32,000 bases of DNA from Candidatus Iainarchaeum sp. (GTDB lineage: Archaea; Iainarchaeota; Iainarchaeia; Iainarchaeales; GCA-2688035). Below the pieces are notes generated by a model. That model did no database searches and was not told where the DNA came from. It saw nothing but the letters and a program-made list of their open reading frames with translations. Position 1 is the first letter of the stretch, and each line of letters opens with the position of its first letter. The position numbers and the translations under genes were made by a program. The DNA is taken from the NCBI GenBank assembly GCA_028713935.1, contig JAQTNI010000006.1, positions 5,890 through 37,889 of the forward strand, given 5' to 3'. Positions 1 to 8,995 of the stretch are shown piece after piece.

Positions 1-1868
1 ACCTCTGGGATTTGCTGCAGTACCACGTAACAACATATTTTGACAACAATACTGCGGGAGTTCCGCCTGCAAAACACAGGAGTGGCCGCGCTTTAAGGAC
101 TCTTGTGCAGAGGCTGAAGGGAAAAAAAGGAAGATTCAGGCACAACCTGACAGGAAAAAGAGTGAATTTTGCAGCAAGAAGCACTATTACTCCAGACCCT
201 TATATTCTTATCAGCGAAGTCGGAATCCCAACGGAAATCGCCAATGAACTGACTGTCCCTGAAATGGTGACGGAATGGAACAAAAAAGAAATCCAGGCGC
301 TTGTGAAAAATACTGACAAATCTGTTTATCTTGTCAGGCCGAATGAAACGAGAAAAAAAATTGATGAGGCAAACAAGCAGGAAGTAATTGAAGAAATTGA
401 CATTGGATTCAGGGTTGAAAGAAAGCTGATGGATGGCGACGTGGTTTTGTTCAACAGGCAGCCGTCATTGCACAGGCTCAGCATGCTGGCGCACACTGCA
501 AGGGTAATGCCGGGAAGGACATTCAGGATGAACCCTATTGTCTGCAAGCCTTACGGCGCGGATTTTGATGGCGATGAAATGAACCTGCATGTGCCCCAGA
601 CAGAAGAGGGAAAAACAGAGGCATTGGAATTAATGTTTGCAAGAAATCAGGTTATTTCGCCAAGATATGGTGCGCCAATAATTGTCCTTGCCGAAGACGG
701 AATTACTGGCTTGTTTGCATTGACAACTCATTCAATGGAATTCACAAGAGAAGATGCAATGGCATATTTTTACGAAATCGGCCTGAAGGAAATTCCAAAG
801 CCTGACAGGGGGAAAAAGTATTCGGGAAAATTGATTTTCAGCCAGTTGCTGCCAAAAGACCTGAATCTGGAATACAAGACATTTACCTGCAATGTCCTGA
901 GAAAAACTGGAATCTGCAATGACTGTGTAAAGGAAAAATGCAGCCATGATGCGTACCTTAAAATTGCAGACGGAAAACTTGTTATGGGCGTAATTGACAA
1001 GGAATCCCTTGGGGAAGGCAGCGGAAAACTTGTGGACGCGCTTGCAAGGCATTATCCAAGCGAAGTCATTGAAAAGTTTTATGCGGGAGCTTCAAGAATA
1101 GTGAGTGATTTGCTTACAAAAAAAGGCATGACAGTCGGCCTTGATGAATATGAAGTGAGCGAGCATATTGAAAAGGAAAAAGAAAAGATTTTCAAGGAAA
1201 CAATTGCAAAAGCAGATGTTTTTGTGCAAAAATACAAAAAAGGAAATCTTGAGCATATTCCCGGAAAAACTATTGAAGAAAGCTTTGAAACATATATTAT
1301 GCGGGCAGCAGGGGAAGCCAAAAGCACTCTTGAAAAAGAAATCATGAAGGAAAAACTTAAGCCTGTGCTGGAAGGGTCATCAAAACTGAATACTATTGCG
1401 ATGATATTGAGTGGCGGAAGAGGCGGAAGCATAAACCTCATGAACATTTCGGGATTCTGGGGCCAGGTTGCAGTCAGGTCTGGAAGGCCAAAAAGGGGCT
1501 TTACTTCAAGGCTTCTTTCATTGAATTACAAGGATGATGTTGGATTGTTCGCAGGCGGATTTTTAAGGGGCAATTTTATCAAGGGAATGGGCGCAGTTGA
1601 ATATTTTTATCACAGCATGGGTGGAAGGCAGGGAGAAGTTGACACTGGTGTTTCAACAAAAGTGTCGGGATACCTTTACAGGAGGCTTGCAAACAGCCTC
1701 AAGGACCTCATGGTGAACAATGACGGCACAGTGAGGACTGCCTCAAAGAACATTGTGCAGTACAATTACGGTGAAGACTCTGTTTTCCCGCAAAAAACAG
1801 TGAAGGGAAAAACCATTGATGTTGACATGGAATTTGTAAGAATGAACACTGAAAAAAAGGAAGACTGA
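1..1868 (+). CDS. rpoA1: DNA-directed RNA polymerase subunit A' (C-terminal ~620 aa; 5' end lies outside the window)
   Basis: Reading frame is open from the window edge. Contains LKGKKGRFRHNLTGKRVNFAARSTITPDP, FNRQPSLHRLSM and the catalytic ADFDGDEMNLHVPQ motif. Followed by rpoA'' as in all archaea. Confidence 0.97.
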   Translation, partial: LWDLLQYHVTTYFDNNTAGVPPAKHRSGRALRTLVQRLKGKKGRFRHNLTGKRVNFAARSTITPDPYILISEVGIPTEIANELTVPEMVTEWNKKEIQALVKNTDKSVYLVRPNETRKKIDEANKQEVIEEIDIGFRVERKLMDGDVVLFNRQPSLHRLSMLAHTARVMPGRTFRMNPIVCKPYGADFDGDEMNLHVPQTEEGKTEALELMFARNQVISPRYGAPIIVLAEDGITGLFALTTHSMEFTREDAMAYFYEIGLKEIPKPDRGKKYSGKLIFSQLLPKDLNLEYKTFTCNVLRKTGICNDCVKEKCSHDAYLKIADGKLVMGVIDKESLGEGSGKLVDALARHYPSEVIEKFYAGASRIVSDLLTKKGMTVGLDEYEVSEHIEKEKEKIFKETIAKADVFVQKYKKGNLEHIPGKTIEESFETYIMRAAGEAKSTLEKEIMKEKLKPVLEGSSKLNTIAMILSGGRGGSINLMNISGFWGQVAVRSGRPKRGFTSRLLSLNYKDDVGLFAGGFLRGNFIKGMGAVEYFYHSMGGRQGEVDTGVSTKVSGYLYRRLANSLKDLMVNNDGTVRTASKNIVQYNYGEDSVFPQKTVKGKTIDVDMEFVRMNTEKKED

Positions 1869-1892
1869 ACCAGGATTTATAAAGTGATTTTT

Positions 1893-3233
1893 ATGGCAAA
1901 AAACAAAAAAGAAGACGTTGAAATTCTTGAAGAAGAAGAGCTTGACGATCTTGAAGATGCGGAAATGGAAGGGAGAAAAGGCAGGGAAGACCTGAGCGGG
2001 GAAGGCGAAGAAGAACCTGAAGAAAGTGCGGAAAAAGAAGGCCCAAAAGTAAAGGAAAAAAAAGGCAGGGACAGGGAAATTCCCGATGCCAAAAAAGAGG
2101 ACTGGGAAGAACAGCCTTTGCCATACTGGGTAATGGCGCAAATTGCTTTTATTGCTGAAAGGGAAAAACTGAGCAAGCAAAAAGTCGAATCGTTAATTGA
2201 AAGGATAAAGGAAAAATTTTCCGACCTGACAGTGGAAGCAGGAGAAGCAGTTGGAATTGTTGCGGCACAAAGCATTGGAGAGCCAGGCACACAGCTTACT
2301 TTGAGGACAAAACACTATGCGGGAGCAGCTGAAGTCAGTGTTGGCTCGGGAATACAGAGAGTTGAGGAAATTGTTGATGGCAGAAGCAAGTCAAAATATC
2401 CCACAATGACAATTTTTTTGAATTCTCCATTGAACAAGGACAGGGAAAAAACAGTTAAATTTGCAAACAAGCTTGTTGAAGTCAGGCTGCAGGATGTTGC
2501 AAAGCTGCATGAGGATTTTGCAAACAGCGTAATCAGCATAGAACTGGATGAAAAAGCCCTGAAAGAGCATTATCTTGACGAAAAAGACATTATTGCAAAA
2601 ATAAAATCAGGGATAAAGCTTGAAGCGCACCAGAAAAAAAATGTTGTGGAATTGAATTTTAAAAAAGAGCAGCTCATAAGGATAAGGAAGGCTATTCTGA
2701 AGCTTATGAATTCAAGGGTACAGGGCATAAAAGGAATTGGAAAAGTTTTGATTGCAGAAGAAGGCAAGGAATTTGTAATAAAAACTTCGGGTTCAAACCT
2801 GAAAGGGGTTTTGAAACTTGAAGAAATTGATTCCACAAGATTGACAACAAACGACATAATGGAAACAAGCCTTGTGCTTGGAATTGAAGCGGGAAGGGCG
2901 CTTGTCGTAAATGAACTGCAAAAAACATTCAAGGACAACAAGATTGCAATTGACATCAGGCATCTCATGCTTTTGGCAGACCTCATGACTTACAGCGGGG
3001 AAGTAAAGGGAATAGTGAGGACAGGCATAAGCAGGGAAAAAGCAAGCCCTTTTGCAAGAGCTGCTTTTGAAGAAACAGTAAAGCACCTTGTTGATGCGAG
3101 TTTCAGGGGCGAAAGCGAAGACCTGCAGGGAGTTGTTGAAAATATTATTGTTGGCCAGCCAGTAAAAGTCGGCACTGGAATTGTTGAATTGGTAATGGAC
3201 AGCTCAAAAACAGGGAAAAGCAAAAAAGAATAG
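1893..3233 (+). CDS. rpoA2: DNA-directed RNA polymerase subunit A'' with an acidic ~75-aa N-terminal extension
   Basis: [28 protein letters not shown] and downstream A'' core. ATG at 1893 (an in-frame GTG at 1884 is an alternative start). Lies 25 nt after the rpoA' stop. Confidence 0.95.
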
Positions 3234-4593: not shown

Positions 4594-5199
4594 ATGGACA
4601 GCTTGATTTTTGGAAAATGGGACACAAAAGATTTGCAGATAAAAGACCTTGGGCTTGCAAGATACGTGAACCTGAAGGCAAAAACAATTCCGCATACATT
4701 CGGCAGGGTTGCAAAAAAAAGATTTGAAAAAGCAAACATAAGCATTGTTGAAAGGCTGATAAACAAGGTAATGCGCTCTGGCCAGGGAAAAAGAAAAATG
4801 AGCGGAAAATACATAAGAGGAAGAAACAGCTGCGGAAAAAAGCTCCAGGCAATGAAAATCATTGAAAAGGCATTTGAAAGGGTTGAAAGGGAAACAAAGC
4901 AAAACCCCGTACAGGTTTTGATAAAGGCAATTGAAAATTCCGCCCCAAGGGAAGATGTCACAAGAATAAAAAGAGGCGGAGTAATGTACACACAGGCAGT
5001 CGACCTTTCCCCCCTGAAAAGAGTTGACGAGGCATTGAAAAATATTGCATTAGCCGCTTTTTCAGGAAGCTTCAACAACAAGAAAAAAGCCGAAGATGCC
5101 CTTGCGGAAGAAATAATTTCAGCTTCAAAAGAAGACAACAAAAGCTTTTCAGTAAAAAGGCGCGACGAAGTTGAAAGAATAGCAAAAGCGTCAAGATAA
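4594..5199 (+). CDS. rps7: 30S ribosomal protein S7 (uS7)
   Basis: LINKVMRSGQ..GKK, ENSAPREDVTRIKRGG and the C-terminal ERIAKASR are typical of archaeal S7. Follows S12. Confidence 0.97.
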   Translation: MDSLIFGKWDTKDLQIKDLGLARYVNLKAKTIPHTFGRVAKKRFEKANISIVERLINKVMRSGQGKRKMSGKYIRGRNSCGKKLQAMKIIEKAFERVERETKQNPVQVLIKAIENSAPREDVTRIKRGGVMYTQAVDLSPLKRVDEALKNIALAAFSGSFNNKKKAEDALAEEIISASKEDNKSFSVKRRDEVERIAKASR

Positions 5200-5273
5200 A
5201 TTTCTTTTTTGCTTACAAATTTTTTTTGAAAAATCAGAGCCAAATTTTTAAAACAAAAAAAAACGTGATTGCA

Positions 5274-7466
5274 ATGACAAAAAGAGAAGACATGGTTGAA
5301 CTGGCAGAAAAAATGATGGCTGACAGGAAAAACATAAGAAACATTGGGACAGTGGCGCACATTGACCATGGAAAAACAACTTTGTCAGATGCGCTGATTG
5401 CAGCGGCAGGACTCATAAGCCAGGAAGTTGCAGGAACAGCGCAGATAATGGATTACGAGGACCAGGAACAGCAAAGAGGCATAACAATCAATGCCGCAAA
5501 CATTTCACTTGTTTTTGATTATGAAAACGAAAAAACACTCGTCAACCTAATTGACACGCCGGGGCATGTTGATTTTACAGGCGAAGTAATAAGGGCAATG
5601 AGGGCAGTTGACGGAGTAATTGTTGTTGTTGATGCAGTTGAAGGAATAATGCCACAAACTGAAACAGTGATAAGGCAGGCATTAAAGGAATATGTAAAGC
5701 CAGTGCTTTTCATAAACAAAGTTGACAGGCTGATTAACGAACTGAAAGTTTCAGAAGAAGAAATGCAAAAAAGATTTTTAAAAGTCATTGCGGCAATCAA
5801 CAGCCTTATCAGCAAAAATGCAGCAGGCGAATTCAAGGAAAAATGGCTAGTAAACCCAGCAAACGGAAGCGTTGCATTCGGCTCTGCAAAAAGAAAATGG
5901 GCCGTCTCAGTTCCGTATATGCAAAAATCAAAAATCAATTTCAAGCAGATTTATTCCTACCTTAAAAACGATGACCAAAAAAAGCTCGCCGAAATAAGCC
6001 CTGTTTATGAGGTTGTTTTGAAAATGGCGCGAGACCACCTGCCCAACCCCTTGGAAGCACAAAAATACAGGACCAAAAACATCTGGACAGGCGACCTTGA
6101 ATCAGAAATCGGAAAATCAATGCAGGCTTGCGATGAAAAAGGCGAAATAGCAATGATGATTACAGATGTAAGCGTAAATCCCCATGTTGGCGACATTGCC
6201 ACTGGCAGGATTTACTCTGGCACACTGAAAAACGGGGTTATTGTAAAACTCTTGGGAATGCAGAAAGAAATCAGGATACAAAAAGCAGGAGTTTTTATGG
6301 GGCCGGAATTTATTGATGTCACAAAGGCGGAAGCCGGCAATGTTGCGGCAATAGTCGGCTTGAAAGAAGTTTTTGCAGGCGAAACAATTTCCACAATTGA
6401 CATGAAGCAATTTGAAAGCTTCAAATCTTCTGTTGAACCAGTAATGACTGTCAGCGTAGAGGCAAAACAAACAAAAGACTTGCCAAAACTAATCCAGGTT
6501 TTAAGGCAGCTTTCAAAAGAAGACCCAAACCTCAGGACATCAATAAACCAGGAAACAGGAGAACACCTGCTTTCGGGAATGGGCGAGCTTCATCTTGATG
6601 TCAACAGGTACAGGATAGAAGAAACGCACAAAATTCCAATTGCAATGGGAGCGCCGATTGTTGTTTACAAAGAAGCAATTACAAAGCCATCGCAAACACT
6701 TGAAGGAATTTCCCCGAACAGGCACAACAAATTCAAAATGAGAGTGGAACCAGTTCCTGAAGAAATTTTGCTGAAGCTTGTTGAAGCAAAAATAGAGGCA
6801 AAAATAAGGCTAAAAGACAAGGAAATAATGTCAAGGCTGGAAGAATGCGGATTTGAAAAAGAAATGTCAAAAAAAACATGGTGCGTGCACAACAACAATT
6901 TGCTTGTAGATTCAACAAGGGGAATTGTGGCGCTGCATGAAATAAAAGAGCTTGTAATACAGGGCTTTGAAGACGCAATGGACGAAGGCCCTATTGCAAA
7001 AGAAAAATGCTTCGGGGTAATGGTAATACTTGAAGACGCAACTTTGCATGAGGACAGCATTCACCGCGGCCCTGCACAAGTACTGCCTGCAATTACAAGA
7101 ACAATTTTTGCAGGAATGCTTTCAACAGACCACATACTGCTTGAACCAAAACAATTATTGTCAATCACAGTGCCAAGCGATTACATGGGCGCAGTAACAA
7201 AAGAACTTGGGTCAAAAAGGACACAAATTTCAGAAATTCGGACAGAAGGCGACACAACAGTAATTGTTGCAAAAGCCCCTGTAAAAGAACTGATCGGCTT
7301 CAGCGCAGACATGCGCGGAGCAACCCAGGGAAGAGCAGTCTGGACAGCGGAATACGCAGGCTATGAAGTCCTGCCAAGAGAACTGCAAAAAGGCATAATC
7401 ACAGAAGTAAGAAAAAGAAAAGGCCTGGAACCAGAGCCAAAAGCATGGCAATTCTTCCTGGAGTAA
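5274..7466 (+). CDS. fusA: Elongation factor 2 (aEF-2)
   Basis: G-domain AHIDHGKTTLSD, DTPGHVDF, NKVDR, and the diphthamide-site context HEDSIHRGPAQ. ATG at 5274 is preferred over the TTG at 5226. Confidence 0.97.
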   Translation: MTKREDMVELAEKMMADRKNIRNIGTVAHIDHGKTTLSDALIAAAGLISQEVAGTAQIMDYEDQEQQRGITINAANISLVFDYENEKTLVNLIDTPGHVDFTGEVIRAMRAVDGVIVVVDAVEGIMPQTETVIRQALKEYVKPVLFINKVDRLINELKVSEEEMQKRFLKVIAAINSLISKNAAGEFKEKWLVNPANGSVAFGSAKRKWAVSVPYMQKSKINFKQIYSYLKNDDQKKLAEISPVYEVVLKMARDHLPNPLEAQKYRTKNIWTGDLESEIGKSMQACDEKGEIAMMITDVSVNPHVGDIATGRIYSGTLKNGVIVKLLGMQKEIRIQKAGVFMGPEFIDVTKAEAGNVAAIVGLKEVFAGETISTIDMKQFESFKSSVEPVMTVSVEAKQTKDLPKLIQVLRQLSKEDPNLRTSINQETGEHLLSGMGELHLDVNRYRIEETHKIPIAMGAPIVVYKEAITKPSQTLEGISPNRHNKFKMRVEPVPEEILLKLVEAKIEAKIRLKDKEIMSRLEECGFEKEMSKKTWCVHNNNLLVDSTRGIVALHEIKELVIQGFEDAMDEGPIAKEKCFGVMVILEDATLHEDSIHRGPAQVLPAITRTIFAGMLSTDHILLEPKQLLSITVPSDYMGAVTKELGSKRTQISEIRTEGDTTVIVAKAPVKELIGFSADMRGATQGRAVWTAEYAGYEVLPRELQKGIITEVRKRKGLEPEPKAWQFFLE

Positions 7467-7550
7467 AGCTTTTCTTTGCAGAGCAAAGAAAACCTTGGAA
7501 AAGAAACAATTTGCCTCTGGCAAATTGTGGTTCGCTTCGCTCACAAAAAA
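7467..7550 (+). repeat. Repeat-family copy immediately after the aEF-2 stop
   Basis: ttttctttgc (7470-7479) pairs with gcaaagaaaa (7483-7492), then ccttggaaaag. acaatttgcc (7506-7515) pairs with ggcaaattgt (7519-7528). Then ttcgcttcgc..aaaaaaa, which resembles the last hairpin of copies A and B. Confidence 0.65.
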
Positions 7551-7654
7551 ATTAAGCGGCACAAAAAATTTTGGAATATTTTGCAGCCGAAATGCTTTAT
7601 TTTTGGCTTTAAGGCATCGGTTTTTAAAGATTTTGAAAGCCAAACTATTAATCA

Positions 7655-7664
7655 AAAATATAAA
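7655..7664 (+). promoter_or_regulatory. Candidate internal TATA box for tuf
   Basis: aaaatataaa lies ~60 nt upstream of ATG 7724. The leader would contain GGAGGT at 7712-7717. Confidence 0.35.
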
Positions 7665-7723
7665 CGTGTTTCCAATTTTTCCTCTAAAAAATTGGTGGCG
7701 AATTTTTTATTGGAGGTAATTTC

Positions 7724-8995
7724 ATGGCAGAAAAGCCACATCTGAACCTGGTATTTATAGGACACGTAGACCATGGCAAATCAACAACTGTCGGAAGGCT
7801 TTTGTATGATTCCGGAGCCTTGAGCGAACAGGAATACAGAAAAATCAAGGCAGACGCCGACGCCCTTGGAAAAGGCACATTTGCATTCGCATTCGTAATG
7901 GACAGGCTGAAAGAAGAAAGGGAAAGAGGCGTAACAATTGATGTTGCTTACAAAAAATTTGAAGGAAAAAACAATTATTTTACAGTAATTGACGCTCCTG
8001 GCCACAGGGATTTCGTAAAAAACATGATAACTGGCACAAGCCAGGCAGACGCATGCGTCCTTGTTGTTGCAGCAAAAGAAGGAGTGCAGCCACAGACAAA
8101 AGAACACGCATTCCTGGCACAGGTAATGGGCCTAAAGCAGATTATAATTGCAATAAACAAAATGGACGAAGTAAACTACGACGAAGCAAAATTCAAAGCA
8201 GTAAAAGACGAAATGTCAAAACTATTGACAAGCGTGGGCTATAAAATAGACACAGTAAAATTCGTTCCAATTTCAGGCTGGGTTGGAGACAATGTAGCCA
8301 AAAAATCAGACAAAATGAAATGGTACACTGGAAAAACACTGCTTGAATCACTTGATGAATTTAAGGCACCATCATTGCCAACAGACAAGCCATTGAGGCT
8401 TCCATTGCAGGATGTTTACAATATCAAAGGTGTGGGAACAGTCCCAGTTGGCAGGGTTGAAACAGGCATCCTAAGGCCTGGAGACAAAATAATTGTCAAC
8501 CCCCCAGGAGTTGTTGGAGAAGTAAAAACAATTGAAATGCACCACGAACAATTAAAAGAAGCAAGGCCGGGAGACAACATTGGATTCAATGTAAGAGGCC
8601 TGACAAAAGACCAGATAGCAAGAGGAGATGTTGCAGGGCATGAAAAAGACCCTCCGACAGTTGCAAAAGACTTTACAGCACAAATTGTGGTGCTAAACCA
8701 CCCGACAGCAATTCCAATCGGATACACTCCAGTATTCCACTTGCACACTGCGCAGTTGTCATGCACAATCACTGAAATCCAGAAAAAACTTGATGTAAAA
8801 ACAGGGCAAACAAAAGAGGAAAACCCGAAGTTTTTGAAAACAGGAGATGCGGCAATAGTAAAAATTGTCCCTACAAAGCCGGTCGTGGTTGAAGAATACA
8901 AAAAATTCCCACAGCTCGGAAGGTTTGCAATAAGGGATATGGGGCAAACAGTTGCTGCAGGAATTGTTTTAAGCGTAACGCCAAGAACAAAATAA
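7724..8995 (+). CDS. tuf: Elongation factor 1-alpha (aEF-1alpha)
   Basis: [27 protein letters not shown] Shine-Dalgarno at 7712-7717. Confidence 0.98.

Follow-up and report, generated by a model that had tools for sequence, protein, structure and literature searches.

The asparagine that opens the NADFDGD motif of multisubunit RNA polymerases has been described as universally conserved (PMC7862312), and the motif itself as invariant in archaea (PMC2605557). In yeast Rpb1 this residue, N479, binds the 3'-OH directly and the 2'-OH via an ordered water shared with Gln1078 (PMC7619134). Laboratory mutants in which its side chain is shortened, beta' N458S and N458A and Rpb1 N479S, are viable, with a modest loss of selectivity and a slower enzyme. 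With N458S, selectivity falls 4-fold at binding and rises 1.5-fold at incorporation, in an overall selectivity of 500-5000-fold, and R425K costs 17- and 25-fold, Arg425 being the major selectivity determinant (PMC7862312); E. coli N458A has an altered attenuation and drug-response profile (10.1101/2020.06.16.155770), and yeast N479S shows a slow-elongation phenotype and is strongly slowed in vitro (PMC3325174). Natural loss of the Asn is already known from plant Pol IV and Pol V and from Neurospora QDE-1. The largest subunits of Pol IV and Pol V, with DFDGD and ADFDGD cores, are substituted at this position and incorporate more dNTP (PMC2605557, 10.1101/117184), but these are non-essential paralogues with about 140 conserved positions changed. 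QDE-1 is an active two-barrel RNA polymerase in which Gly1005, two residues before D1007, is the equivalent residue and the same arginine, Arg962, binds the 2'-OH (PMC9508822); it is, however, a single-chain RNA-silencing enzyme with 15% identity, and the equivalence rests on the spacing to the first catalytic Asp. The GADFDGD variant in sole housekeeping archaeal enzymes, which we report here, is new in that the literature found does not describe it: no paper on GADFDGD and none relevant on N458G, N479G or any measured Gly mutant appeared in a search whose coverage was incomplete, especially for subscription papers. Rpb1 of the cultured Cafeteria roenbergensis virus (CroV, ADO67402.1), a viral protein 35% identical and of independent origin, carries the identical GADFDGD, and this is absent from discussion in the same literature.

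The stretch of DNA analysed, 32,000 nucleotides of a Candidatus Iainarchaeum genome and hereafter the window, begins inside the rpoA' gene and includes the following features.

3 to 1868, + strand: rpoA' (Rpo1N), 3' part, the ORF open-ended in the window (NCBIfam PRK08566, TIGR02390).
453 to 473, + strand: NRQPSLH motif with Arg408 (equivalent to beta' R425, the main 2'-OH selector; PMC7862312) and the next Pro, intact.
552 to 584, + strand: Metal A loop YGADFDGDEMN, three aspartates intact.
555 to 557, + strand: codon GGC for Gly441 of RpoA', the counterpart of Asn458 in E. coli beta' and of Asn479 in yeast Rpb1.
1635 to 1673, + strand: bridge helix EVDTGVSTKVSGY, identical in all sampled Asn-bearing relatives.
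1884 to 3233, + strand: rpoA'' (Rpo1C), followed by the L30e, NusA, S12, S7 and EF-2 genes of a standard operon.
2277 to 2315, + strand: trigger loop (13 residues), Gln929 and His936 equivalents intact, Phe935 changed to Lys.

The initial annotation had read Gly for Asn in this loop and equated the residue with the Asn of beta' and Rpb1 (N458 / N479), and both points hold: TAC GGC GCG GAT TTT GAT GGC GAT GAA ATG AAC lies in frame and gives YGADFDGDEMN. The complete rpoA' encodes 877 aa in a single copy (G000:C6, about 5124-7757), and its product matches the curated archaeal A' families over its full length, with 1092 bits for PRK08566 (cut-off 819) and 1074 for TIGR02390 (cut-off 1043). In six frames of the 1.23-Mb genome, which is 93.7% complete, D[FY]DGD occurs once, in rpoA'. 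The order rpoB''-rpoB'-rpoA'-rpoA''-L30e-nusA-S12-S7-EF-2 is the usual archaeal string, and the protein is what one expects of an archaeal Rpo1N, with a double-psi beta-barrel that carries the DxDGD metal A triad, the NRxP arginine and a lone housekeeping copy inside the standard operon. It shares subunit, operon, aspartate triad and NRQP arginine with the archaeal Rpo1N/A' of Pyrococcus, Thermococcus and Sulfolobus (PDB 8cro, 4qiw, 2pmz), and its predicted model matches the fold of 2pmz with Z 21.5 and an rmsd of 2.5 A over 178 residues. Unlike the solved archaeal enzymes aligned, all of which read NADFDGD, it carries Gly441 as the first residue of the motif, which makes the site a variant of the consensus, together with trigger-loop, bridge-helix and Metal B changes found throughout the order. 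Most of the named relatives, at 64-69% identity, belong to Candidatus Diapherotrites, from which we take the organism to be an Iainarchaeota (DPANN) archaeon; the sequencing runs that contain it are landfill metagenomes, with no RNA run among those listed.

Close relatives keep the Asn. It is present in both congeners (RpoA' 91% and 84% identical) and in all 21 family members, so that Gly is found in 0 of 2 for the genus and 0 of 21 for the family, and the three other members of the 90% protein cluster of RpoA' all have Asn. In the phylum as a whole the motif is present in 192 of 214 genomes and has Gly in two of them, this one and G148, which belongs to another family of the order. A tree computed with the site masked nests the Gly protein among its Asn congeners with support of 100/97/100, and Gly was therefore gained on the branch of this species. 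The suggestion in the initial annotation that the change is lineage-specific is thus right for the species and wrong for a clade; the Asn of congeners and family rules out Gly as a defining signature of an Iainarchaeota lineage. The nesting also rules out transfer of the whole gene from another Gly lineage, while a transferred tract of only a few codons could conceivably have been the source.

Beyond the phylum, the same substitution recurs. A collection-wide scan with the archaeal context PY-x-ADFDGDEM, which recovered 14 of the 16 exact cases known and which a bacterial FGADFDGDQ would escape, placed PYGADFDGDEM in at least 64 species representatives and more than 120 metagenome stretches, in an A'/Rpb1-type context where translated; because it is present in at least 64 other species representatives, GADFDGD is neither chance nor a unique error. 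The genome-by-genome survey, which covered Micrarchaeota, Nanobdellota, the Thermococci-type phylum and Thermoplasmatota besides the phylum of this organism and in which each phylum sample is named after the record of its centre genome, itself counted, gave 17 Gly among 401 genomes for Micrarchaeota, 12 Gly and 6 Ala (plus one YAGDFDGD) among 401 for Nanobdellota, and 5 Gly among 131 for the Thermococci-type phylum, all from one five-genome clade. Thermoplasmatota had no Gly except in one stand-alone second copy, and among the matches listed all Thermococcales-type and Thermoplasmatota housekeeping copies have Asn; among the best 150 representatives at 50% identity there were 147 Asn and 1 Gly. 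Viral contigs yielded 28 Gly, 4 Ala and at least 120 Asn. FastTree trees, from which changes are counted without direction, give at least 23 changes among 179 archaeal proteins, with 18 independent Asn versus Gly/Ala pairs on well-supported branches, and 8 such pairs among the viruses. Fixed clades of 18, 7, 5 and 4 species exist, and the depth of such Gly clades indicates that this state is stable over long times. The initial annotation had allowed that Gly might be a common neutral variant in archaea. Its recurrence in about 1-4% of genomes, over three DPANN phyla and with fixation in several deep clades, goes some way towards this, but about 96-99% of DPANN keep Asn, and the cost of losing it is therefore not zero. 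Gly at this site is recurrent rather than unique, and probably of small effect.

The spectrum of replacements is narrow. From Asn, Gly and Ala are two bases away each, and Ser, Thr, Asp, His, Tyr, Lys and Ile one base, yet a pattern that took in all codons having C, G or T as the second base returned only Gly and Ala from 802 DPANN genomes, with no Ser, Thr, Ile or Cys; for Asp, His, Tyr and Lys, whose codons have A as the second base, coverage came from the listed rows of any-codon surveys, where a few extra short matches resemble other proteins. In the viral collection there was no Ser, Thr or Cys codon at the site, and one His, in a broken ORF. In intact enzymes, then, only Gly and Ala were found and Ser and Thr never, which means that removal of the side chain persists and its partial replacement does not, and therefore that selection filters the variants, although single-step variants may occur in rare cases. 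Serine, the usual laboratory substitution and the one used in most such work, occurs in 0 enzymes of these surveys and may not report simple side-chain loss. GGT accounts for 66% of the codons at the site and for 32% of the remaining Gly codons of those genes, and by hand count 12 of 17 Nanobdellota carriers have an assembly size of at most 0.8 Mb, compared with 98 of 400 overall, both figures being uncorrected for relatedness or completeness; the present genome, at 1.23 Mb, is not a small one within its phylum.

We consider it probable, on balance, that this is a normal working RNA polymerase with a tolerated substitution of mild effect, and not new chemistry. In an AlphaFold model (mean pLDDT 83.6) that was read for secondary structure only, Gly follows immediately upon short helices whose last residue is the Tyr, and it stands directly ahead of the aspartate loop; a first model had low confidence at the loop. 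This would be a helix-cap position, where exchange between Gly and Asn is common. The conformation that these two residues have in common is not one that Ala favours, and the occurrence of Ala counts against our explanation. The side chain of Asn would help to hold the NTP ribose in a role secondary to Arg425 and Gln929, both retained, and its removal, to Gly and less often to Ala, would keep the geometry of the loop, a water probably replacing the amide. The price would probably be a small loss of NTP affinity or rate and a few-fold loss, at most, in rNTP/dNTP selectivity. The one-base neighbours Ser, Thr and Asp are apparently worse and do not persist, so that Gly would arise either by a tandem mutation or by way of Ser or Asp as a short-lived intermediate, with fixation mostly in lineages under weak selection, such as DPANN and giant viruses, if the population-genetic cause is as we suppose. 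The GGT excess and the small Nanobdellota assemblies are two hints that fit this route. The natural Gly and Ala variants of sole housekeeping polymerases show that the Asn is dispensable and not truly universal. The expected physiological effect is small, and pairs of close relatives that differ at the site, such as this genome and its 91% identical congener, are ready-made controls.

Against this reading, positive selection too would be expected to produce two-base changes over and over. Among host-dependent archaea and giant viruses Gly or Ala might have been selected convergently, for instance by tuning the elongation rate or pausing, or by avoiding a nucleotide analogue or active-site inhibitor from hosts or competitors. 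At least 18 + 8 independent two-base changes without surviving intermediates, their concentration in DPANN and viruses, and the altered attenuation and drug-response profile of E. coli N458A (10.1101/2020.06.16.155770) speak for such adaptation; the patchy spread, in which lone species stand amid Asn relatives of similar settings, does not, and there is no common co-change and no agent identified. Loss of the 3'-OH contact would, moreover, be more likely to admit 3'-deoxy analogues than to exclude them, judging from the structural description of that contact (PMC7619134). We regard adaptation as a rather doubtful explanation. The same degree of doubt attaches to its more general form, in which Gly or Ala at N458 would be a second stable active-site state lying across a fitness valley from Asn, which giant viruses and host-dependent archaea would have entered at least 25 times because it is favoured there, with changed ribose handling, rate or sensitivity to nucleotide analogues.

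The initial annotation had added that the change could affect substrate selection. This is plausible, but the effect is probably small in view of the only 4-fold effect of N458S and of Arg425, the major determinant, which is kept. In its strong form, with markedly relaxed sugar selection and dNTP incorporation as in Pol IV and Pol V, we find the idea improbable. Those enzymes are indeed substituted at the Asn position and take up more dNTP (10.1101/117184), and in this order, which has Lys at Phe935 and has lost the Metal B glutamate, effects could add up; against this, Arg425 and Gln929 are intact, the changes of 4-fold in binding and 1.5-fold in incorporation measured for N458S are to be compared with 500-5000-fold overall (PMC7862312), and both Pol IV and V are non-essential and differ at about 140 positions, whereas here the only polymerase of the cell carries one local change. 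Nor does this enzyme resemble a degenerate paralogue of the Pol IV/V type, being present in one copy without excess departures at invariant columns. All of 71 archaeal Gly/Ala enzymes retain the equivalents of Arg425, Pro427 and Tyr457, and 30 of 30 retain that of Gln929; such natural variants lend independent support, from evolution, to the view that the real ribose selector is Arg425.

As to the surroundings of the site, which the initial annotation had called orthodox, the local flanks and the aspartates are intact, but changes found order-wide lie elsewhere in the active centre. The trigger loop reads TQLTLRTKH, with Phe935 to Lys, in Asn and Gly members alike, and throughout the order the bridge helix is changed and the Metal B glutamate lost, independently of Asn or Gly. 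These changes may form a permissive background for Gly, although Gly also occurs in enzymes with the Metal B glutamate kept.

Strong purifying selection on the gene is evident, dN/dS being 0.06 against the nearest congener at 86% DNA identity, with a short end branch. RpoB'', B', A' and A'' together have 4 departures at otherwise invariant columns, versus 8 and 8 in the Asn congeners, and with the single copy and the dN/dS value this rules out a pseudogene or spare copy. That a deleterious change was rescued by compensation at a second site, whether in another subunit or in the trigger loop, also seems improbable to us. In 4.3 versus 0.4 of 14 pairs Gly is accompanied by loss of Arg/Asn at position 933 of the trigger loop (yeast N1082), a weak hint that is not significant, and this genome keeps its Arg there; the Gly clade of the Thermococci-type phylum has TLSTFH where its sisters have TLNTFH, and the yeast double mutant N479S/N1082S is viable (PMC3325174). 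In an independent-pairs test of 811 RpoA' columns and the trigger loop, however, nothing covaried with Gly/Ala beyond the noise in the opposite tail (0 of 811 RpoA' columns), and in G148 Asn-to-Gly is the sole departure at invariant columns.

An assembly artefact is unlikely, and altogether an artefact or a minority or polymorphic allele of this single genome seems the least credible reading of all, for which a depth of only about 8 in one sample, the tendency of contigs to drop rare variants and the Asn of all close relatives may be cited: a Logan contig of run X1 covers window positions 1-1012 with 0 differences, and the same variant recurs, including in a sister lineage in several separate assemblies (L122, L166, L169, L175, L194, L242). 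Run X1 is possibly the source sample, which makes the Logan contig a separate assembly of the same sample, one sample and two assemblers; two other samples contain the organism, and among their listed pieces none spans 555-557. The initial annotation had judged a single sequencing error unlikely, rightly so since two bases separate Asn from Gly and the second assembly is identical, and the AAY that an assembly error would have hidden does not appear at 555-557, where the re-assembly has GGC. We also considered mutagenesis of AAY by a diversity-generating retroelement (DGR), with its A-specific mutagenesis, and rejected it: in the 93.7% complete genome there was no second copy of the region or template repeat and no in-frame RT motif.

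Several further observations concern the polymerase genes of this order. Upstream of the window, the rpoB' Metal B motif (L001:3921-3941) is GFNTMDA and lacks the conserved Glu, which is E813 in E. coli beta and E836 in yeast Rpb2. Where the motif was read, another residue takes the place of this Glu throughout the Iainarchaeales (M/L/Q/Y), in almost all Micrarchaeota and in part of the Nanobdellota, and Thermococci keep it. Its loss is possibly more consequential than the Asn change. The TFS cleavage factor (PF01096) was found in 0 of 11 genomes of the order, some of them 93-99% complete (G000, G001, G002, G004, G012, G022, G036, G059, G146, G148 and G149), and is present in four control archaea; together with the Metal B change this may reflect a loss of proofreading cleavage. 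A link of Gly to TFS loss was rejected, PF01096 being not found in Gly and Asn genomes alike. In rpoB'' (L001:225-3236) the product has 1003 aa, compared with about 490 aa in all sampled relatives, owing to an intein-like insert of ~500 aa, and inteins lie directly before CKPYNADFDGD in RpoA' of some relatives (L059, which is G058:C16, P0080, P0109 and P0125), no more than a few residues away from the Asn/Gly site. RpoA'' begins with a long acidic extension (window 1884-2120) that is not specific to this genome, the lengths in congeners being similar (448-452 aa stop to stop).

Other departures from the motif were seen along the way. The stand-alone rpoA' of Thermoplasmata SIG7 (L474:5039-8023) lies outside the operon and combines GADFDGD with NRAP and a decayed bridge helix, and a normal Asn copy is present elsewhere in that genome. 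The broken viral ORF with His is Rpb1-like (L479:7564-8892, on a 1.84-Mb contig) and reads HADFDGD with a stop five codons later. TKH in the trigger loop also occurs in several giant-virus Rpb1. Two records labelled Marsarchaeota and Nitrososphaerales (L072, L102) group by RpoA' with Micrarchaeota and Pacearchaeota and are likely mislabelled or mis-binned. Further positions of the motif vary in DPANN: the Micrarchaeota sample has NADYDGD in several genomes and NGDFDGD in G251, and genus g42, of the same order as the present genome, has NADHDGD, with Phe changed to His between the first two aspartates, together with NRYP in 3 of 3 genomes (L480, L482, L483).
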